From: Escherichia phage 308Ecol101PP | Sequence record: OR062945.1 | Reading direction: 5' to 3' (one strand) | Length of the DNA: 64,000 bases | Shown: positions 1,865 through 48,941 of the stretch, in pieces | Numbering within the stretch: the stretch's first letter is position 1 | How the letters are laid out: every line of letters begins with the position of its first letter | Made by a program: the position numbers and the translations under genes | The notes under the pieces: model-generated | What the model saw: the letters and a program-made list of their open reading frames with translations, nothing else | Told to the model about the DNA's origin: nothing | The model's database searches: none

Positions 1865-3549
1865 AATCATTTAAATTAAATCGTGTTCGTTATCAAAACA
1901 TCATGTCGGTAGGTGGGAATCCTATTGACATCCAATTAGATAAAGTCCAAAAGACATTAATCACTGGTAAAAATGGCGGTGGTAAATCTACGATGTTAGA
2001 AGCCATTACTTTCGGACTTTTCGGTAAACCATTTCGTGATGTTAAGAAAGGGCAAATCATTAATAGCACGAACAAGAAAGAGCTCTTAGTTGAGCTTTGG
2101 ATGGAATTCGATGGTAAAAAATACTTCATTAAACGTGGCCAAAAGCCCAATATTTTCGAAATCTCCGTTGACGGTGTTCGTCTCGATGAATCTGCCAGCA
2201 GTCGTGACTTCCAAGAAGAATTTGAACGTAGCATCGGAATGTCATACGCGTCTTTTAAACAAATCGTTGTGCTTGGGACGGCAGGGTATACCCCTTTCAT
2301 GGCTCTTAGCACCCCTGCTCGTAGAAAACTTGTCGAAGACCTTTTAGAAGTCGGCACACTCGCCGAAATGGATAAAATCAATAAGTCTCAAGTTCGAGAA
2401 CTTAATTCTCAGGGACAAGTTCTTGATGCCAAGAAAGATGGTATTATCCAACAAATTAAGATTTATAATGAGAATATCGAACGTCAAAAGAAATTATCTG
2501 GTGATAATGTAGCGCGTCTACAGAATATGTATGACGACCTAGCCAAAGAAGCTCGTTCATTAAAAGCAGAAATCGAAGAAGCTAATGAGCGACTACTTAA
2601 TATCGTTCTTGATGAAGACCCTACTGAGGCATTCAACAAGATCGGACAAGAAGCATTCTTGATTAAATCTAAAATCGACTCATATAACAAAGTTATTAAG
2701 ATGTATCATGACGGTGGTACATGTCCTACTTGTGCATCGCAGTTGCACCAGGGTGATCCTATTGTCTCTAAGATTACCGATAAGCTTCACGAATGTAATC
2801 ACTCATTCGAGCAACTTACATGTCACAGAGATAATCTGAGTGTCCTAGTGGACGAATATAGAGCTAATGTTAAGACTAAACAGGACCTTGCATCTGATAT
2901 TCGTACCAAGAAACAAGCAATGATTGCCACTATTGATAAAGCTAAGAAAGTTAAAGCTGCAATAGAGCAAGCCTCAGCAGAATTTATCGACCATGCCGAT
3001 GAGATAGCTTTGCTTCAAAAAGAACTTGATAAAATCATTAAAACAAAATCAGATATCGTTCTTGAAAAATACCATCGTGGTATTATCACAGATATGTTAA
3101 AAGATTCTGGTATTAAAGGTGCTATCATTAAAAAATATGTGCCTCTGTTCAACAAGCAGATTAACCATTATCTTAAAATCATGGAAGCTGATTACGTGTT
3201 TTCTATTGATGAAGAATTCAATGAATCTATAAAATCACGTGGCCGTGAAGAGTTCAGTTATGCTTCATTTAGTCAAGGCGAAAAAGCGCGTATCGATATC
3301 GCATTGTTGTTTACATGGCGAGATATTGCTGAAAAGGTCTCTGGTGTTAGAATCAATACATTAATTATGGACGAAGTCATGGATTCCGCGACTGATTCTG
3401 AAGGTATTAAAGCTATTTCAACAATTCTTAACTCTCTAACCGATGCAAACGTGTTTATAATTAGTCACAGAGACCATGACCCACAAGCTTATGGACAACA
3501 TCTTCAAATGAGCAAAGTTGGACGATTTACTGTAATGACTGTTTCATAA
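1861..3549 (+). CDS. 46: gp46 recombination endonuclease subunit (Rad50/SbcC-like ATPase)
   Basis: 562 aa; Walker A GKNGGGKST near N-terminus, central coiled coil with CPTC zinc hook, C-terminal signature/Walker B (LIMDEV). Confidence 0.95.
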   Translation: MKSFKLNRVRYQNIMSVGGNPIDIQLDKVQKTLITGKNGGGKSTMLEAITFGLFGKPFRDVKKGQIINSTNKKELLVELWMEFDGKKYFIKRGQKPNIFEISVDGVRLDESASSRDFQEEFERSIGMSYASFKQIVVLGTAGYTPFMALSTPARRKLVEDLLEVGTLAEMDKINKSQVRELNSQGQVLDAKKDGIIQQIKIYNENIERQKKLSGDNVARLQNMYDDLAKEARSLKAEIEEANERLLNIVLDEDPTEAFNKIGQEAFLIKSKIDSYNKVIKMYHDGGTCPTCASQLHQGDPIVSKITDKLHECNHSFEQLTCHRDNLSVLVDEYRANVKTKQDLASDIRTKKQAMIATIDKAKKVKAAIEQASAEFIDHADEIALLQKELDKIIKTKSDIVLEKYHRGIITDMLKDSGIKGAIIKKYVPLFNKQINHYLKIMEADYVFSIDEEFNESIKSRGREEFSYASFSQGEKARIDIALLFTWRDIAEKVSGVRINTLIMDEVMDSATDSEGIKAISTILNSLTDANVFIISHRDHDPQAYGQHLQMSKVGRFTVMTVS

Positions 3550-10574: not shown

Positions 10575-12260
10575 ATGAAAAAAGCTGTTATTCTTGGTGC
10601 TGGACTGGCAACTCGTTTGTATCCAATAACGCATCATATTCCTAAGGTGCTTGTTAACTATAAACAAGACACTATTCTGAGCAATTTGTATACAATTTAT
10701 TCTGACCTTGGCGCAGATGAAATTATTGTAGTAGTTCATTCAAAATTTGCTGAAACTGTTCGAGCTTATTGTGAGCAAGAAGGGTTCAATGTGACTATTC
10801 GTACAGTTGATGAAGCGTATGGTTCTGCTTATGCTCTTGCTAAATTGCACAAAGATTTAGACGGCCATAATGTAATTGTTAACTGGTGTGATATTATTCC
10901 TGATTTTGGTTCGTGGTCTTGGAATGTTAACGCAATCTATGTTAAGGGTGACGAATGTCGATATAATTTCGACGGTGAAAATATCACTAATGTAGGTTCA
11001 ACAGGTGGTAATGTTGTAGGAATTTATCAGTTCAAAGACTGGGAATTCTATATGGGTTCTACTGATGAGGAAATTCATGAATACTGCAAAGGACGTGATT
11101 TCGTAGAATTCCTTTACGGCAGCGCATTCAATAAATCAGAGCTTATGAATCTAATTGATTTAGGTGATATGCCTAAACTTGAAAAAGCTCATGAAGTTCG
11201 TGAACTTAATCGTAGTTTTAATGCAGTTGAAATTGGTGAAGAAACTGTAACTAAATTCGCATTAACCGAACAGGGCCGAGCTCTTCAGAAAGATGAGATT
11301 TCATGGTATCTTAAAGTGAAATCAGATTCAGTTCCTCAGTTAGTTTCTGTTAATGAAAATAACTTTGAAATGGAACGCATTAAAGGTAAGCCGGCATTTG
11401 AATATATTAAATCCAAATCAAGTCTTGCTCGTCCACAAATTGTTGATGCAATTTTAGATGCACTGAAATTCAGCACAGACACTTATTTTGTAAGTCCTGA
11501 AACTGTTCGTCGTGATTTCACTAAAGAATTCTATACTAAAGTTATTGATCGTTGTGAAAGTATTCAACCATTGATTGATTCATTTGGTAAAATCACACAT
11601 GTGAACTACACTAAGATTGGGCGTCTGAAGCCAATGTTGAAACAAGCTTTAGAACACCTTATTCGTTATCATAACCGTTCTCAGGGACAGTACTCTGTTA
11701 TTCATGGTGACCCGAACTTCAGTAATACTATGATTACTGATAATGGTGAAGTCAAGTTTATCGACCCTCGTGGATATTTTGGTGAAACCAAGATTTATGG
11801 GCCAAAATTGTATGATGAAGCTAAAGTGCTTTACGCTGTTTCAGGTTATGATGAATTCAACGCTAATCCGACTTGGGGACAGTTTACTATTGATGAAACA
11901 ACTTGTAATGTGACTATTAACATCAATCCGTTAGTTTACAAATATGGAAAGATGAGTTCGTTTAACGAGTATCATCATTTGGCAGTGGCAATTATCTGGA
12001 TTGCATTAGGTGGTTATTTCAAGAATAATCCACTTAAAGCGGTAGCCGCATATTATAAAGGTATGGAACTTCTGACTAAGCAATTACGTAATATGGGCCG
12101 TGTACTTCAGGACGGCACTATTAGTTATGATGTAGCAGAACCTGTAACGGCTACTCTGATTACAAAAAATCCTGGTAAATGGGTACTAACTGATAAAGAA
12201 ACTGGTGTTTCTTATCGTCCAATCGGTGGCGATATCACTCATCAATGGGAACGAATCTAA
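10575..12260 (+). CDS. bifunctional protein: N-terminal sugar-1-phosphate nucleotidyltransferase (RmlA/GalU-like) fused to C-terminal APH/choline-kinase-like sugar kinase
   Basis: 561 aa; N-terminal GAGLATRLYPIT (RmlA signature G-x-G-T-R-L-x-P-I-T) ; C-terminal HGDPNFSNTMI...IDPRGYFG (Brenner motif plus DxxG of kinase-like phosphotransferases). Confidence 0.7.
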   Translation: MKKAVILGAGLATRLYPITHHIPKVLVNYKQDTILSNLYTIYSDLGADEIIVVVHSKFAETVRAYCEQEGFNVTIRTVDEAYGSAYALAKLHKDLDGHNVIVNWCDIIPDFGSWSWNVNAIYVKGDECRYNFDGENITNVGSTGGNVVGIYQFKDWEFYMGSTDEEIHEYCKGRDFVEFLYGSAFNKSELMNLIDLGDMPKLEKAHEVRELNRSFNAVEIGEETVTKFALTEQGRALQKDEISWYLKVKSDSVPQLVSVNENNFEMERIKGKPAFEYIKSKSSLARPQIVDAILDALKFSTDTYFVSPETVRRDFTKEFYTKVIDRCESIQPLIDSFGKITHVNYTKIGRLKPMLKQALEHLIRYHNRSQGQYSVIHGDPNFSNTMITDNGEVKFIDPRGYFGETKIYGPKLYDEAKVLYAVSGYDEFNANPTWGQFTIDETTCNVTININPLVYKYGKMSSFNEYHHLAVAIIWIALGGYFKNNPLKAVAAYYKGMELLTKQLRNMGRVLQDGTISYDVAEPVTATLITKNPGKWVLTDKETGVSYRPIGGDITHQWERI

Positions 12261-14146: not shown

Positions 14147-14863
14147 ATGGGAAAACATAACACAATGAAATATATTAAAGCCGCAGATTTTCAATCCGCA
14201 TTTAAAGCTGTCAATCGTGAAATTTTAGAAAATCCACAGTTCGTTACTGATTCTCGTATTGGACGTTGTAATGAAATTGGGTCTATGACAGTAGTTGTTG
14301 ATACCCCTTCATCATTCAAAATGACCGACCCACGTATTAATCGCATCTCTTATGAATATGCTGAAGATTTCTGGAAATTTATGATTTCTGGTGGTACTGA
14401 TGCAAAAGAAGCATTTAAGGCATATCCTAACGTTGCTAAATTTATTTCTAAACCTAAATCAGACGCTTTGCCTGCAAACTTCAACACTTTCTATGGTCCA
14501 CGAATTGCGGCCCAGTTACCAGCTCTTCTCAAAGAACTTAAAGAGAAACCTAATTCACGAAGAGTTGTGTTTCAAATTCTTGAAAGTTCAGATCAGGCTT
14601 TGCTTGATTCGGATGAAACGCTTGAATATCCATGTACTGACTCAGTGACTTATTATATTCGTGATGGTAAGCTTTATACCCACTGTCATATGCGTTCTCA
14701 GAACTGTGCTGTTGTTATGCAGTTGGATTTTTATCTCCAAGGAAAATTACTTCATTATATCGCTAACGAATGTGGTGTAGAAGTTGGTGATTATACTCAT
14801 ACCATGGTAAGTGCCCATGTGTTTGAACGTGATTTTGATTATGTTAAAGGATTCCTTGACTAA
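14147..14863 (+). CDS. 42: thymidylate-synthase-fold deoxynucleotide hydroxymethylase, gp42 (dCMP hydroxymethylase) homologue
   Basis: 238 aa; NSRRVVFQ, EYPCTDSVTYYIRDGKLYTHCHMRSQN, VSAHVFERDF align with T4 gp42/TS active-site blocks as recalled; T4 gene order. Confidence 0.7.
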   Translation: MGKHNTMKYIKAADFQSAFKAVNREILENPQFVTDSRIGRCNEIGSMTVVVDTPSSFKMTDPRINRISYEYAEDFWKFMISGGTDAKEAFKAYPNVAKFISKPKSDALPANFNTFYGPRIAAQLPALLKELKEKPNSRRVVFQILESSDQALLDSDETLEYPCTDSVTYYIRDGKLYTHCHMRSQNCAVVMQLDFYLQGKLLHYIANECGVEVGDYTHTMVSAHVFERDFDYVKGFLD

Positions 14864-36952: not shown

Positions 36953-38053
36953 ATGAAAGTTATGTTTATCCCATCTCGCGCAGTCCCATTTAATCCTGAC
37001 CGTGTACAAGGTGGTCTTGAAGCAGTACATTTAAATGTGTTGAAATATCTTGTGTCCATCGGTGCTGATATTGATTATATCGGCTTTGATAATGACACGT
37101 TTGGTGACTGGAAAGTTACACACCATCCTGTTGGTCATCTGACTAAATTTAGTCTAGGTATGAGTTATACTATGGCTCGTAAGATTGTTGAACTAGCCGG
37201 CATCCATGAATACGATTTTGTTGTTACTATGGAACCGACTAAACTAACCGTTCAGGCAATTAAAGACGCAGGTCTCTCTAAAGTTCATAAGAATTTTATG
37301 GCAACACCATTTGAACCGGTATCTCGTGGCATTGTTCAAATTTGGGACCAGACTATTCAAATTCATAAGAATGGTGGTAAGAGTTATGCTCCTACTAAAG
37401 CCTTCCGTGAATTTGAACGCAAATATTGTTATATGACTTCAGGTCTGACTGACAAAATTGATTATGATTATTGGCGAGCAAATCCGTTGTTTGAAGCCGA
37501 AGATTATCCGGTTATTTGTTTGAATGAGAAACCTGAAGTTCTTCCGGCGACTGATCTGATTATTAGTGCACAACGTTATGACACTAAAATGCGTCGTACT
37601 GATGTTGCTCTTGAAGCGATTAAAGCACTAGGCGAAAATGGTGTAGGATACTGTCCAAGCAAATGGGCACCACCAGCTAAATATCCTGTTATTATTGATG
37701 CTCCACACAGTGAAATCATGGAACGTCTTAAAACAGCTAAAGCGCTTATTAATACGTGTCCTGACACAGGTACGGTAGAGAATAGTTCTATTGAAGCCAT
37801 CTCTAAAGGTGTCCCTGTAATCCAGTTAGTTTTTAAGGATTATCCTCATGCGACATTCGAATACGACCCAGATACTGTGCGTGTAGAAATTGATTCCTCT
37901 ACTCCTAAGAAAGAAGTAGTTGCGCTTTACACAAAAGCTGTATTAGAATTCACTGACACATACGAAGCTCGAGTTAAACGTGCTGAAGCAGTATGGAAGA
38001 AGTATAACCGAGATGCAGTTGTTGCGATGTGGGATAAAATCTTCACAGCGTAA
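36953..38053 (+). CDS. GT-B fold glycosyltransferase (GT4-like), candidate DNA hydroxymethylcytosine glycosyl (pentosyl) transferase
   Basis: 366 aa; C-terminal GT-B donor-binding pattern CPDTGTVENSSIEAISKGVPVI (E-x7-E); located between gene 39 and rIIA. Confidence 0.6.
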   Translation: MKVMFIPSRAVPFNPDRVQGGLEAVHLNVLKYLVSIGADIDYIGFDNDTFGDWKVTHHPVGHLTKFSLGMSYTMARKIVELAGIHEYDFVVTMEPTKLTVQAIKDAGLSKVHKNFMATPFEPVSRGIVQIWDQTIQIHKNGGKSYAPTKAFREFERKYCYMTSGLTDKIDYDYWRANPLFEAEDYPVICLNEKPEVLPATDLIISAQRYDTKMRRTDVALEAIKALGENGVGYCPSKWAPPAKYPVIIDAPHSEIMERLKTAKALINTCPDTGTVENSSIEAISKGVPVIQLVFKDYPHATFEYDPDTVRVEIDSSTPKKEVVALYTKAVLEFTDTYEARVKRAEAVWKKYNRDAVVAMWDKIFTA

Positions 38054-44001: not shown

Positions 44002-45327
44002 ATGCAATTGAATTCTCGTAATCTAAAAAGTATTATTGATAACGAAGCCTTAGCATATGCGATGTACACCGTTGAAAACCGTGCAATCCCAAACATGATT
44101 GATGGATTTAAGCCGGTTCAACGTTTTGTGGTTCATCGTGCGTTAGATTTGGCTCGTGGTAATAAAGAAAAATTTCATAAACTTGCGTCAATTGCAGGCG
44201 GTGTTGCAGATTTAGGTTATCACCATGGTGAATCTTCTGCACAAGATGCAGGTGCATTGATGGCTAACACATGGAACAACAACTATCCGTTGTTAGATGG
44301 CCAAGGCAACTTTGGTTCTAGAACAGTCCAAAAAGCTGCAGCATCTCGTTATATTTTTGCTCGTGTAAGTAAAAATTTCTATAACGTATATAAAGATACT
44401 GAATATGCTCCAGCTCATGAAGATAAAGAACACATTCCACCAAAATTCTATCTTCCTATTATTCCGACAGTTCTTTTGAATGGTGTCTCTGGTATTGCAA
44501 CCGGTTACGCAACAAATATTCTGCCTCATAGTTTTAAATCAGTCAAAAAGGCTGTATTACAAGCTCTTCAAGGTAAAAATGTCACTAAGCCAAAAGTTGA
44601 ATTCCCGGAATTCCGTGGTGAAGTACATGAAGTTGATGGGCGTTATGAGATTCACGGAACATATAAGTTCACATCTCGCACTCAAATGCAGATAACTGAA
44701 ATCCCGTATAAATTCGACCGTGAAACGTATGTGAGTAAGGTTCTTGACCCGTTGGAAGACAAAGGTCTAATCTCATGGGAAGATGATTGCGGTGAACACG
44801 GCTTTGGATTTAAGGTGAAGTTCCGTAAAGAGTACTCGCTTCCTGATGATGAAGAGCTACGTCATGAAAAAATCATGAAAGATTTTAGTCTCATCGAACG
44901 TCGTTCACAAAACATCACAGTGATTAATGAAAAGGGTAAATTAGCGGTCTATGATAACGTAGTAGACTTAATCAAAGATTTTGTTGAAGTCCGTAAGACT
45001 TACGTTCAGAAACGTATTGACAACAAAATCCTTGAATCTGAAAAAGCATTTAAACTTGCTTTTGCTAAGGCGCACTTCATCAAAAAAGTTATCAACGGTG
45101 AAATTGTGATTCAAGGCAAGACTCGTAAAGCTTTGACTGAAGAGCTAGCACAAATCGAAATGTATAAAGAACATGTCGATAAACTGGTAGGTCTTAACAT
45201 CTTCCATATCACTTCCGATGAAGCACGTAAATTAGCAGAAGAAGCTAAAGCTAAGAAAGAAGAAAATGAGTATTGGAAGTCTACTGATGTTGTGACAGAG
45301 TACACTAAAGACTTGGAGGCACTTTGA
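44002..45327 (+). CDS. 52: gp52 DNA topoisomerase II medium subunit (GyrA-like)
   Basis: 441 aa; GyrA-type N-terminal region (IPNMIDGFKPVQRFVVH), active-site region; T4 gene order. Confidence 0.9.
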   Translation: MQLNSRNLKSIIDNEALAYAMYTVENRAIPNMIDGFKPVQRFVVHRALDLARGNKEKFHKLASIAGGVADLGYHHGESSAQDAGALMANTWNNNYPLLDGQGNFGSRTVQKAAASRYIFARVSKNFYNVYKDTEYAPAHEDKEHIPPKFYLPIIPTVLLNGVSGIATGYATNILPHSFKSVKKAVLQALQGKNVTKPKVEFPEFRGEVHEVDGRYEIHGTYKFTSRTQMQITEIPYKFDRETYVSKVLDPLEDKGLISWEDDCGEHGFGFKVKFRKEYSLPDDEELRHEKIMKDFSLIERRSQNITVINEKGKLAVYDNVVDLIKDFVEVRKTYVQKRIDNKILESEKAFKLAFAKAHFIKKVINGEIVIQGKTRKALTEELAQIEMYKEHVDKLVGLNIFHITSDEARKLAEEAKAKKEENEYWKSTDVVTEYTKDLEAL

Positions 45328-45403
45328 GTGCCCTAGCCTTAGGATTTCTCAGTGCAATAGCTGCACTAGTGATTTGGCTGTATTGGTTGGACAAACATGA
45401 TTA

Positions 45404-45437
45404 GGGAGCTTCGGCTCCCTTTTGTGCATTTTTTTTT
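45404..45437 (+). terminator. intrinsic terminator, UUCG hairpin plus T-rich tract
   Basis: GGGAGC-TTCG-GCTCCC followed by TTTTGTGCATTTTTTTTT. Confidence 0.75.
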
Positions 45438-45446
45438 CACAAAACA

Positions 45447-45475
45447 GTTTACATGTGCTTCAAACATGATATTAT
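45447..45475 (+). promoter_or_regulatory. early promoter
   Basis: GTTTAC, 17-nt spacer, TATTAT, AGACCTATCAA. Confidence 0.6.
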
Positions 45476-45514
45476 AGACCTATCAAATCAAAACAACCAA
45501 ATTGGAGAAATAAA

Positions 45515-46147
45515 ATGTCTAAAGTTACTTACATCATCAAAGCTTCTGAAAACGCTCTGAATGAAAAAACTGCTGCAATAATGGTTTATATCATTAAGAA
45601 CAACTTCACCACTGCTGCCAATGTCCGTGAAGCTCTGGAAGCAGAATACAATGCATCGGTTGTTAACTCTAACATTGGTGTATTGATTAAGAAAGGTTTA
45701 GTCGAAAAATCTGGTGATGGACTTGTAGCAACAGGCGAAGCAATGGATATTATCCAAAAAGCTGCAGACCTCTTTGCCCAAGAAAATGCTCCAGAACTTC
45801 TTCAGAAACGTAACACTAGAAAAGCACGTGGAGTTACTCCTGAAATGCATGAATTAGCAAACTTTGTTTTTGAAAATATTAAAGATAAAGTTGAAGTTAA
45901 AGAAATTGGTGAAAACCGTAGTAACTTGGAAGTTCGATTCGCTAAACGAGTTCTAGGCATTCGCCAAATTGAAATTCGACGAGATGGCGCTCTTAGAATC
46001 TTTGCATACAACATGTCAGAAACTGAATCAAAGCTGTTTACTTCTCTTGAAAATGATGTTAAGATTAAGATCGGTGGTAAATATACTTACATTGACTTCC
46101 CTAATGTGTCCAAAGAAATCATTACCCTTGTAACTAACGTACTGTGA
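45515..46147 (+). CDS. motA: MotA middle-transcription activator
   Basis: 210 aa; MSKVTYIIKAS..., NSNIGVLIKKGLVEKSGDGL, QENAPELL match T4 MotA as recalled. Confidence 0.8.
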   Translation: MSKVTYIIKASENALNEKTAAIMVYIIKNNFTTAANVREALEAEYNASVVNSNIGVLIKKGLVEKSGDGLVATGEAMDIIQKAADLFAQENAPELLQKRNTRKARGVTPEMHELANFVFENIKDKVEVKEIGENRSNLEVRFAKRVLGIRQIEIRRDGALRIFAYNMSETESKLFTSLENDVKIKIGGKYTYIDFPNVSKEIITLVTNVL

Positions 46148-46157
46148 GGAATACATA

Positions 46158-46487
46158 ATGAATAAGCTGAATATTATTAACGAACTTCGTAAATGTGCAG
46201 AACCTACTCAGGAAGGATGGGATATTTGGTACCACGGGGCTTATTTAGGGACAATTGTAAAGATTAAAGCAGGCCAATATACGGTTATTCGTGAAAATAA
46301 TGACGCGCCATTTGGCCTTCGTAAAAACTACATGGCAGCGATCAGTTCATTTGTTGATGCAGCTTACGAAATCTATAAAGAAGATTATAAAGAATATCAA
46401 CAGTCACAACCGGTTATTCGTTCGATTGGTGTAAATAAACAAGCACAAAAATCTATTTGGCAACGTATTAAGGAATGGTTTAAATGA
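46158..46487 (+). CDS. hypothetical protein (109 aa)
   Basis: SD GTGAGGAATACATA. Confidence 0.5.
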
Positions 46488-46945
46488 AAACTTTTAAAGA
46501 ACGTTTAGCTCTGTTAGATAAAGCTTTGTCGCGTGAGACTCCGGAAAGTCTAGCTGCTAAATTAGCTTCTTACGGTGGTGAATATACAGAACAAAATGTT
46601 TTAGATGAAGTTCCTGAAATCTGTTGGCAGACTCTGTATTGGGATGAAAACCAAAAGTATCAACGACGAATTGTCTGCGCAGCCAACCGTTTTAAATTAA
46701 AAGATGGACGAACTCTTATTATTCCAGGTGCTCGTCATTACTCTAAAGATATGGCTGAAGTACTTGATATAGTTGGTCCTCAATTAGTCTCGCAACAAGT
46801 TTGTGGCGACGACCAAGGCTTTATCGACCAATACTCTAATTACTGGACGCGTGAAGAAGCAATGATTATTGCAACGTATGCTGGACAGGTACGTATTGAA
46901 CGTGGCGGAAGTGAGAAAGAACTTTATTCAGAGGACCTTTATTAA
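46484..46945 (+). CDS. hypothetical protein (153 aa)
   Basis: ATGA-coupled start. Confidence 0.5.
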
Positions 46946-47226
46946 TGAATATTAAACAACTCCAGATTGATGCTATTGAAGCCCACATTAATCATATCAA
47001 ACGCCTGAATGCTATGATGGAAGAAAATTATGGTATGTATGCTAATCAGCCTGGTTGGGATGCTTTAGACCATCCTTATTTGGTTAATTTATGTAAAGGT
47101 GACACGTTAGCAATTATTCGTGATGGGTTAAAACCTTTCTTGCGTGACATGTATATTAAAATGAACGAAGAAATTATTAGCTCGTTGCAATATCAATTAA
47201 GGAAATTAGACGATGAGAATAATTGA
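46945..47226 (+). CDS. hypothetical protein (93 aa)
   Basis: TAATG-coupled start. Confidence 0.5.
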   Translation: MNIKQLQIDAIEAHINHIKRLNAMMEENYGMYANQPGWDALDHPYLVNLCKGDTLAIIRDGLKPFLRDMYIKMNEEIISSLQYQLRKLDDENN

Positions 47227-47437
47227 TTCTAAAGTAGATTATTTTAATTCCGTTAATGATAAGAATAAAGCTTTAATTCGCCACTTTATTACTGAGATGG
47301 GTTATACCGACTCTAAAGATTTGAAAGAGCACATTATCGAATGTTCTGTGGCTAAAAAGTTTTCTTTCACAGACAAATGTTTAAACGAGGTTATAAAGCA
47401 TTATGAACAATCTTGTAGCAAAACACGATTTCAATAA
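47213..47437 (+). CDS. hypothetical protein (74 aa)
   Basis: SD AAGGAAA; overlaps preceding stop. Confidence 0.45.
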   Translation: MRIIDSKVDYFNSVNDKNKALIRHFITEMGYTDSKDLKEHIIECSVAKKFSFTDKCLNEVIKHYEQSCSKTRFQ

Positions 47438-47511
47438 GGCTTCCGTCCATAAGGACAAAAAGAAATCAGAACTTCAATCTAAACGTAAACAAAAACATAA
47501 GGGTAAAGACT

Positions 47512-47811
47512 ATGCTTACTAAAATCAAAGAAAATCCTGCCACTGAACTTGTTATTCGATGTGAAGAACTTGCAGAGCTTTATCAGGTTAACCGAGAAGT
47601 GTGTCGTAGTGTTATCGTAGATATGGAAGATGAAGTCTGTTCTCGAATTGAGTTTAGTGTTGATTTCAGTCATTCTAAACCCGGTGAAATCACTATCGTA
47701 TTTGGTTCTGACTACACTGAAGAACAGGCTCTTAATGTCTTAGAATATGAAATGTCATTCTTTGACATACAGGACTACATTGATAGTTATAAGGAACAAT
47801 ATGAGTCATAA
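47512..47811 (+). CDS. hypothetical acidic protein (99 aa), possible Arn-like anti-restriction protein by position
   Basis: SD AAGGGTAAAGACT; net acidic; sits between motA and asiA. Confidence 0.4.
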   Translation: MLTKIKENPATELVIRCEELAELYQVNREVCRSVIVDMEDEVCSRIEFSVDFSHSKPGEITIVFGSDYTEEQALNVLEYEMSFFDIQDYIDSYKEQYES

Positions 47812-47962
47812 TCTTCAGAACGTAGTAGAGGCCGAACGTGAGCGTGAGGCTTTAGTCTATAATGAACTATTAGTTCAGTTCTTGGCCTTACACTCGTACG
47901 AACAGGAAGACTATACCAATTACGTTAAAAGCGTAGAAAAAGCTGTTTACAATCAACACTGA
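47801..47962 (+). CDS. hypothetical protein (53 aa)
   Basis: ATG 47801 overlapping preceding gene; ORF track begins at 47747. Confidence 0.35.
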   Translation: MSHNLQNVVEAEREREALVYNELLVQFLALHSYEQEDYTNYVKSVEKAVYNQH

Positions 47963-47972
47963 TAATGGTACT
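47943..47972 (+). promoter_or_regulatory. early promoter upstream of asiA
   Basis: GTTTAC, 18-nt spacer, TACTAT. Confidence 0.55.
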
Positions 47973-48008
47973 ATATCCATATCAACTAAGTGGAATGAAT
48001 AAAACGTT

Positions 48009-48281
48009 ATGAATAAAGACATTGAAATCGTACGTGAAATTATTACTATTGCTTCTATTTTGATTAAATTCTCTAGGGAAGATATTGTTGAAGACCGAGC
48101 AAGTTTCATCGGATTCTTGAATGAGATTGGAATTAAAAAAGATGGTCGGCAGCTAAATCAGAATTCTTTTAGAAAACTAATTACAAATTTAACTGCCGAA
48201 GAAAAGAAAACACTGATTAGTGAATTCAATGAAGGTTTTGAAAATATTTATCGTCATTTAGCGATGTATTCTAACAACTAA
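48009..48281 (+). CDS. asiA: AsiA anti-sigma-70 factor
   Basis: 90 aa; VREIITIASILIKFSREDIVE..., NQNSFRK, LISEFNEGFE match T4 AsiA as recalled. Confidence 0.85.
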   Translation: MNKDIEIVREIITIASILIKFSREDIVEDRASFIGFLNEIGIKKDGRQLNQNSFRKLITNLTAEEKKTLISEFNEGFENIYRHLAMYSNN

Positions 48282-48941
48282 TTATTTAGCCCTTCCTAGT
48301 ATTCGGATCGCTTGGTTGCATATAGCCGCTAAGCGATCTTCCTCAAGTATATTACTCCCCTTATACCAATACATCGTCACAGTTCCGGCATAGATGTTAT
48401 CCAAATTAAAGTATGGACAACTATACATATAAGAAAGTTCGGCAGTCTTAGATTTTGTAGGCAAAAATGCAAATTCTGATTTAGATGAGAAATGACGGCC
48501 ACTTAAATGAATTATATATTCATTGGCCGTTTTATCCACCGGGAATCCGCCAAGGGACTTTTCAGAAATTGTGCTAGGTAGTTTGCCTTCATAAGCTATA
48601 AGGTCGACAAAATAATTTAAGTTTTTAGGTCTGAAAGAATACACAGCACTAAAATCTGCACCAGATGAGATATGAACTATTTGCAGTTGTTCTAGAGCCG
48701 CAGATTCAAAACGTAAAGCTCGTTCTTTTTGGATTATTTCAGTATAAGTATCATACTTAGCTCTTACATAATAATCCAGCAAAATACTTCCTTTGTACCA
48801 TATTAGTGCCATTAGGAACAAAAGAATAATTACCGCTACTCGGGACATTAAAACCTTTCCGGTAGCGTTATCTTTGAAAATACGATCTAGCAACCCAAAT
48901 AGAATATCACTAAGCGAAAATGATACTTTTGGTGTTGCCAT
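48282..48941 (-). CDS. t: holin T
   Basis: 219 aa; single N-terminal TM helix (VAVIILLFLMALIWY) plus large C-terminal domain; position next to gene 38. Confidence 0.8.
   Translation of the reverse strand: MATPKVSFSLSDILFGLLDRIFKDNATGKVLMSRVAVIILLFLMALIWYKGSILLDYYVRAKYDTYTEIIQKERALRFESAALEQLQIVHISSGADFSAVYSFRPKNLNYFVDLIAYEGKLPSTISEKSLGGFPVDKTANEYIIHLSGRHFSSKSEFAFLPTKSKTAELSYMYSCPYFNLDNIYAGTVTMYWYKGSNILEEDRLAAICNQAIRILGRAK

Follow-up and report, generated by a model that had tools for sequence, protein, structure and literature searches.

A probable, deeply diverged Arn homologue in the motA-asiA interval of an RB69-like Escherichia phage

Results

The window analysed here, a stretch of 64,000 nucleotides from Escherichia phage 308Ecol101PP (sequence record OR062945.1), is a Mosigvirus (RB69-like) genome carrying genes for arabinosyl-hydroxymethylcytosine DNA. 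The 2.8 kb around its motA-asiA interval are 97-98% identical to the Mosigvirus genomes Mizar, mar005P1, SHSML-52-1 and APCEc01. The product of positions 36953-38053 shows 99% identity to ORF003c of RB69, for which an arabinosyltransferase role has been proposed (Thomas et al. 2018, PMC6024577), a thymidylate-synthase-fold protein is encoded at the gene 42 position, and an NTP-transferase resembling RB69 ORF53_52c is also encoded in the window; the phage is thereby identified as RB69-like, with arabinosyl-hydroxymethylcytosine in its DNA.

The genes that bound the interval had been taken in a preliminary description as regulators of middle transcription, and Pfam confirms both. Upstream lies motA, the activator of middle transcription (45515-46147, plus strand, 210 residues; Pfam MotA_activ E=2.4e-39 and MotCF E=2e-8; phrog_1345 E=5e-90; 51% identity to T4 MotA), and downstream asiA, the anti-sigma-70 factor (48009-48281, plus strand, 90 residues; Pfam AsiA E=2.4e-32; 72% identity to T4 AsiA). 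Holin t of the window is 75% identical to its T4 counterpart. Between the two regulators lie seven tightly packed genes, all on the plus strand. Six had been described previously, and all six are present on that strand where they had been placed; each matches a phage protein family, with PHROGs E-values from 1e-30 to 1e-72, so they are real genes rather than chance open reading frames. The total, nonetheless, is seven, as a gene of 39 codons that is annotated in relatives was absent from the set of open reading frames then considered. The six had also been called uncharacterised, which holds as regards function, but five of them are orthologues of named T4 genes (arn.4, arn.3, arn.2, arn.1 and asiA.1). 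The T4 order is asiA, asiA.1, arn, arn.1, arn.2, arn.3, arn.4, motA, and the window displays its mirror image with an orthologue in every slot: motA, arn.4, arn.3, arn.2, arn.1, the 39-residue gene, a 99-residue gene, a 53-residue gene and asiA.

The arn.4 orthologue (46158-46487, plus strand, 109 residues; phrog_1594 E=2e-52) shows 74% identity to T4 Arn.4 across the 68 annotated residues of the latter, and is named Arn.4 in relatives. It is followed by the arn.3 orthologue (46484-46945, plus strand, 153 residues; phrog_839 E=3e-72), the best conserved gene within the interval at 82% identity to T4 Arn.3, then by those of arn.2 (46945-47226, plus strand, 93 residues; phrog_1844 E=5e-42; 41% identity to T4 Arn.2) and arn.1 (47213-47437, plus strand, 74 residues; phrog_4452 E=1e-38), the last being 72% identical to an extended, TTG-started form of T4 arn.1. 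The gene at the asiA.1 position encodes an acidic protein of 53 residues (47801-47962, plus strand; phrog_5245 E=2e-30) with 26% identity to T4 AsiA.1, which itself matches phrog_5245 weakly (E=2.6e-4). This gene had been read from position 47747 as a protein of 71 residues. That reading was rejected, because the phrog_5245 profile aligns with the longer form from residue 19 onwards, an AAGGAA Shine-Dalgarno sequence marks the start at 47801, and relatives annotate 162 nt. None of these five genes (arn.4, arn.3, arn.2, arn.1 and the one in the asiA.1 slot) has a Pfam or NCBIfam match, NCBIfam giving nothing for any of the seven. PDB profile searches with arn.3, arn.4 and arn.2 gave no credible match, and a single-sequence AlphaFold model of arn.3 was unusable (pLDDT 38). 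Along with the 39-residue gene, all of them are conserved T-even early genes that are not known to take part in the Arn mechanism.

The seventh gene (47403-47522, plus strand) encodes a lysine-rich peptide of 39 residues, with pI 10.1 and a net charge of +8, belonging to the DUF7230 / RB32ORF249c family (Pfam DUF7230 E=5e-13, 49 bits against a curated cut-off of 27; phrog_1359). It is 79% identical to its T4 counterpart, and 16 synonymous versus 8 non-synonymous codon differences between the two indicate purifying selection. A tblastn search located the DUF7230 gene in 1342 phage records spread over numerous genera, including that of Pectobacterium phage PM2, where no Arn-like open reading frame follows it. 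This ultra-conserved peptide gene, translationally coupled to its 99-residue neighbour, is unannotated in the T4 reference. Literature searches on ORF259c, DM_Arn, DUF7230 and RB32ORF249c returned nothing relevant.

Spacing from motA through the 53-residue gene ranges from +10 to -35 nt per junction, with overlaps of 1-35 nt, and 46 nt precede asiA. A scan of positions 45300-48300 for MotA boxes (middle promoters) found none, and the terminator scan stayed at chance level, with no convincing terminator from 45448 to 47962. Two sigma-70-like promoter candidates were detected on the plus strand, both with an extended TG: a T4 early-type one upstream of motA (45448-45475; TTTACA-16-TATTAT, 10/12 consensus matches) and another upstream of asiA (47946-47974; TTTACA-17-TACTAT, 9/12 consensus matches). 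Both are pattern matches from a consensus scan that gave, overall, fewer sites than shuffled sequence. Considering the tight packing, the lack of an internal MotA box or terminator and the position of these candidates, the interval would seem to belong to an early transcription unit with motA at its head.

The gene of main interest (47512-47811, plus strand) encodes 99 residues and overlaps both the 39-residue and the 53-residue genes by 11 nt. The strongly acidic character previously attributed to its product was borne out, with 23 Asp and Glu against 8 Lys and Arg, pI 4.15 and a net charge of -15, and gene order places it exactly in the T4 arn slot, as had been proposed. This slot upstream of asiA.1 and asiA is conserved in the window, T4, VR25, phiD1, the metagenomic contig L007, Klebsiella phage PMBT63 and Edwardsiella phage PEi20. 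The products of this slot and of that of asiA.1 diverge strongly from T4, at 16% and 26% identity, respectively, versus 41-82% for their neighbours, which marks these two positions as a local hot spot of divergence.

Direct comparisons of the 99-residue protein with T4 Arn were blank. BLASTP gave no alignment, and the Pfam model DM_Arn (PF22134; curated cut-off 26 bits) did not match the protein even at E<=10. This model scores T4 Arn at 186.7 bits and a protein intermediate between both families, the 91-residue metagenomic P0023, at 16 bits (E=0.015); it was evidently built from a narrow T4-type clade. A single-sequence phmmer search of the PDB yielded nothing, and a word-indexed protein search recovered close relatives only. 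Profile comparisons, on the contrary, consistently pointed to Arn. For T4 Arn, the best PHROGs match after its own family is phrog_8202, the family of the 99-residue protein, in a full-length alignment (E=0.005). When a profile of Mosigvirus and Gaprivervirus/Dhakavirus sequences was searched against the PDB, the top match was 3wx4_A (E=4.6e-4; second match 0.28), and hhalign of the same profile with the T4-type alignment gave E=5e-5. Not one of 20000 composition-preserving shuffles of T4 Arn came up to the 22.2 bits of the unshuffled protein (the best gave 14.3), so acidity alone is insufficient for the match. In the reciprocal comparison, with a narrow profile of T4-type sequences, the 99-residue protein obtained 4.3 bits, a value equalled or exceeded by 369 of 20000 shuffles; as this profile has almost no diversity, the low score was not counted against homology.

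P0023 was one of three clusters retrieved in an exhaustive search of 1.84 billion representatives. Its gene sits directly upstream of a 42-residue open reading frame, asiA and holin t, that is, in the equivalent slot, and the protein aligns over its full length both with T4 Arn (33% identity, E=7e-11) and with the window protein (29% identity, E=9e-15). Used as a tblastn query against all phage records, it recovered both allele types, in 559 records. A wider profile (A9) was then available by adding P0022, P0023 and the slot open reading frames of PMBT63 and PEi20 (36.7 and 23.4 bits, respectively, against the family HMM), with no T4-type sequence included. Its best match in the PDB was 3wx4_A, at E=2.1e-9 (41 bits; residues 5-92 aligned with 3-92), followed by one at 0.6, and hhalign gave 96% probability (E=3.9e-9). 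Motifs common to both families are an L-x-x-L-Y helix, Y-(R/H)-S-(I/V), a glycine before the central strand and a C-terminal (D/E)-(I/L)-x-D-Y-(I/F). By sequence, the 99-residue protein thus falls within an Arn superfamily and outside DM_Arn as delimited by Pfam.

The charge pattern is in agreement with this placement. Among the 15 acidic positions of T4 Arn that are aligned, 9 are also acidic in the 99-residue protein versus 3.5 expected (p=0.0009), and every non-T4-type Arn relative examined is acidic (pI 4.05-4.4). The net charge of -15 of the 99-residue protein, with acidic residues at T4-equivalent positions, is as expected of the DNA-mimic class.

An AlphaFold2 model of the protein, computed from an alignment that excluded T4-type sequences, reached a mean pLDDT of 80.7 and displayed a beta-alpha-alpha-beta-beta-alpha-alpha topology. 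The best match for this model among 350,542 PDB chains was 3WX4, the crystal structure of T4 Arn (Foldseek probability 1.00, TM 0.59/0.59, 92 aligned columns), a moderate TM accompanied by an E-value of 0.022. Ferredoxin-like domains also appeared among the matches, with TM about 0.5, and among predicted viral structures the model also matched uncharacterised proteins of ~90 residues from the T4-like phages EcS1, KP179 and AmPh_EK29. As modelled, therefore, the 99-residue protein is predicted to share the three-dimensional fold of Arn.

Close relatives of the protein constitute the phrog_8202 family, known from RB69 as RB69ORF259c, with 88-100% identity in 165 phage records; 13 further relatives, from Gaprivervirus/Dhakavirus, show about 33%. 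The copy in the window simply adds to this family and differs from it in nothing substantive. Across phages, the arn slot holds T4-type, Mosigvirus-type, Gaprivervirus-type, metagenomic P0023-type, Klebsiella-phage-type and Edwardsiella/Enterobacter-type alleles. The suggestion that the allele might be suited to the modification carried by this phage did not hold, since alleles ~90-95% identical to it occupy the same slot in the glucosyl-type (glucosyl-hydroxymethylcytosine) Tequatroviruses phiD1, slur03, slur08, slur14, Aplg8 and G2540; an allele tailored to arabinosyl-hydroxymethylcytosine was accordingly rejected. Relatives are also present in Gaprivervirus, a genus without known glycosyltransferases. 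In phiD1 all gene lengths of the arn.4-to-asiA.1 module are of Mosigvirus type, which suggests that the module has passed between genera.

Discussion

The evidence from the wider profile (E=2e-9 against the PDB, 96% hhalign probability), from P0023 and from the predicted fold upholds the earlier proposal of an Arn-like anti-restriction candidate, and the 99-residue protein is very probably encoded by a diverged arn allele. It represents a further, deeply diverged member of the known Arn family rather than a new kind of system. With T4 Arn (PDB 3WX4, PF22134, phrog_3151) it shares the slot downstream of arn.1 and upstream of asiA.1 and asiA, a similar length (99 versus 92 residues), an acidic pI, and a colinear full-length profile alignment that includes the C-terminal E-I-x-D-Y-(I/F)-(D/E) motif, and T4 Arn is the top structural match of its model. 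On the contrary, it differs in its low overall identity, by which it escapes BLASTP and DM_Arn, in its higher net negative charge (-15 versus -9), in a C-terminal extension some 8 residues long (SYKEQYES) and in not conserving N70, a T4 residue important for PUA-Cal binding. T7 Ocr, ArdA and lambda Gam are likewise small, very acidic, early proteins that bind where host defence enzymes would contact DNA (PMC12707154), but they have non-homologous folds and are directed at type I restriction-modification/BREX and RecBCD; PDB sequence and fold searches revealed no similarity of either kind between them and the 99-residue protein.

According to the account of Ho et al. 2014 and earlier work given in PMC12707154, T4 Arn mimics DNA; it keeps McrBC from restricting non-glucosylated hydroxymethylcytosine DNA, and it binds H-NS. 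It also blocks a PUA-Cal-HAD defence through its beta-sheet face, an activity in which T2-Arn, three substitutions apart, fails (PMC12871103). The reading favoured here, to which we assign a probability of roughly 0.55, is that the 99-residue protein is the Mosigvirus arn allele, orthologous to T4 Arn though strongly diverged from it, and acts as an early DNA-mimic anti-defence protein. Expressed early in infection from the promoter next to motA, it would dimerise as T4 Arn does and present a DNA-like array of carboxylates, and would fill, as an acidic decoy, the site with which host proteins bind DNA. Its likeliest targets would be the type IV enzyme McrBC, the default candidate, through its McrB subunit, and the nucleoid protein H-NS. 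Since McrBC would otherwise cut hydroxymethylcytosine DNA before its arabinosylation, the protein may protect such DNA. Inhibition of McrBC is suggested here by homology alone, and at only 16% identity the T4 target cannot simply be assumed for the window protein.

A serious rival arises from the extreme divergence of the slot and the lability of Arn specificity: the protein might keep the Arn fold and have been retargeted, serving as an acidic decoy against some host DNA-binding defence or regulator other than McrBC, such as a GmrSD/BrxU-type type IV enzyme, a PUA-Cal-HAD-like system or H-NS alone. The drop in identity at the arn and asiA.1 slots, against better conserved neighbours, fits such a change of target and is what an arms-race interface would be expected to produce. 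Across T-even-like genera the arn slot is home to at least five types of allele, T4-Arn and T2-Arn already inhibit different defences (PMC12871103), and T4 Arn itself has several partners, namely McrBC, H-NS and PUA-Cal. Nevertheless, no specific alternative has positive evidence in its favour, McrBC is the sole restriction target shown genetically for the Arn family, and the hosts of these phages (E. coli K-12 and relatives) carry it, so that retargeting is regarded as the less probable course, at something under one chance in three in our estimation. A related and more doubtful proposal views the arn slot as a hypervariable anti-defence locus in which each allele neutralises its own set of host DNA-binding defence proteins; the Mosigvirus spectrum would then differ from that of T4 Arn, and the DUF7230 peptide might cooperate.

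Other explanations depart further from T4 Arn. An Arn-derived protein might have lost any anti-defence role and act as a regulator or partner of early neighbours such as the DUF7230 peptide or the asiA.1 product. Translational coupling through the 11-nt overlaps on both sides and the opposite charges of the basic peptide (+8) and the acidic protein (-15) would accord with such a function, which is nonetheless improbable when DUF7230 is far more widely spread than any Arn allele, occurs in PM2 without a following Arn-like open reading frame, and when the acidic character is strongly kept across all alleles, as fits mimicry. Finally, an unrelated small acidic protein could have replaced arn, its likeness to Arn being a matter of composition and of a common alpha/beta fold. 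The blank BLASTP and DM_Arn results would accord with such a replacement, many proteins have small alpha/beta sandwich folds, and ferredoxin-like domains reach TM about 0.5 in Foldseek. However, the shuffle control, the gap between the first PDB match and the second, the colinear full-length alignments with their shared C-terminal (D/E)-(I/L)-x-D-Y motif and the significant similarity of a single intermediate, P0023, to both families leave this explanation effectively refuted.

Existing annotation seldom reflects the relationship. In the RB69 record the gene appears as a hypothetical one, as it does in most of 178 records, and PHROGs assigns no function to phrog_8202. Some records depart from this: bas47_0085 of the BASEL phage AlbertHofmann, a phrog_8202 member, is annotated as 'anti-restriction nuclease protein Arn' (the BASEL paper contains no discussion of this annotation), the copy in vB_Eco_F31 is labelled 'anti-restriction nuclease', and the RefSeq re-annotation of Enterobacter-phage relatives of the PEi20 protein reads 'inhibitor of MrcBC restriction'. 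In many records, arn.1 to arn.4 carry the label 'anti-restriction nuclease' while the Arn homologue itself is called hypothetical, a widespread misannotation in which the labels come from gene names and not from evidence.

In the 2021 comparative study PMC8056088, the Arn column of Supplementary Table 3 is blank for all Mosigvirus, Dhakavirus and Gaprivervirus phages, and no Arn is recorded for the RB69-like and JS98/VR-like phages nor for six Tequatroviruses, the Group I phages phiD1, slur03, slur08, slur14, Aplg8 and G2540. The present analysis closes this apparent gap, as every one of these phages has a diverged form of arn at the conserved position. Given that single substitutions in Arn already shift the defence that is blocked, these diverged natural alleles provide a panel on which the evolution of DNA-mimic specificity may be followed, be it towards McrBC, towards H-NS or towards newer defences like PUA-Cal-HAD.

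Conserved and Arn-related genes between motA and asiA

The widest conservation in the motA-asiA interval is displayed by the gene for a 39-residue, lysine-rich DUF7230 protein of pI 10.1 (window 47403-47522, plus strand; sequence beginning MNNLVAKHDFNKASVHKDKKK), whose 5' end overlaps the 3' end of arn.1 and whose 3' end overlaps the start of arn. Tblastn detected it in 1342 phage records at 60-80% identity, in phages of Escherichia, Klebsiella, Enterobacter, Vibrio, Aeromonas, Edwardsiella and Pectobacterium. Codon differences between the window and T4 copies comprise 16 synonymous and 8 non-synonymous changes. The gene is left without annotation in the T4 RefSeq record and in VR25 despite an intact ORF in both (T4, L004 2081-2200, minus strand; VR25, L005 about 2390-2510, plus strand). 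Literature and PDB searches with the 39-residue protein found no publication and no structural relative.

The ORFs that follow DUF7230 in Klebsiella phage PMBT63 (L009 1823-2188, 36.7 bits with the family HMM) and Edwardsiella phage PEi20 (L011 1910-2176, 23.4 bits) are Arn-superfamily members too. In PMBT63 the annotated gene encodes 121 residues, with the Arn domain running from residue 33, just past an internal methionine at residue 30, and its true start is therefore probably at 1910. There are 142 records with this Klebsiella-type allele; among the matches listed, all are labelled hypothetical. The HMM that scored both ORFs was used with P0014 excluded, this being a member of the T4-Arn family from a Logan assembly (pI 10.1) in which asparagine or lysine replaces nearly every aspartate or glutamate of T4 Arn. 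Such a substitution pattern is that expected from pervasive G-to-A changes, and P0014 probably represents a read assembly affected by damage or hypermutation, not a variant that functions.

Annotation and divergence of the neighboring genes

As annotated in T4, arn.1 and arn.4 encode 43 and 68 residues, respectively, versus 74 and 109 in their window and VR25 homologues. For arn.1 (extended frame region at L004 2175-2393, minus strand; homologue at window 47213-47437), a 72-residue frame is intact in T4 from a TTG start and aligns with the homologues over its full length, so that the T4 annotation may be too short. Regarding arn.4 (L004 3128-3334, minus strand; homologue at window 46158-46487), the N-terminal 41 residues seem to be absent from T4.

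Many GenBank and RefSeq records, as illustrated by the annotations of relatives (L002, L003 and L013), label the arn.1 to arn.4 homologues as "anti-restriction nuclease", also the name of phrog_4452, while the true Arn homologue is a "hypothetical protein". It has no functional basis as a label and appears to derive from the names of the genes, from which it spread.

The gene in the asiA.1 slot (window 47801-47962, plus strand), encoding an acidic protein of 53 residues, is a second fast-evolving gene adjoining arn. Its product is strongly diverged from T4 AsiA.1 (26% identity), the two having in common only the N-terminal MSHNLE..VVE..R motif, which also opens a longer PMBT63 protein (88 residues) and a 42-residue protein on metagenomic contig L007.

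DNA modification genes and possible exchange of the module

The window carries the arabinosyl-hmC gene set, all on the plus strand, formed by a counterpart of RB69 ORF003c (36953-38053; 99% identity), for which a role as hmC arabinosyltransferase has been proposed, a thymidylate-synthase-fold protein resembling dCMP hydroxymethylase (14147-14863), and a 561-residue NTP-transferase-domain protein similar to RB69 ORF53_52c (10575-12260).

Yersinia phage phiD1, a Tequatrovirus, contains a Mosigvirus-type arn.4-to-asiA.1 module (L006 1147-2951), with gene lengths equal to those of the Mosigvirus type and an Arn allele ~95% identical to that of the window. Its presence in this phage suggests that the module has been exchanged between genera by recombination, and a Mosigvirus-type module in a Tequatrovirus also accounts for the apparent absence of Arn from six Group I phages in PMC8056088.
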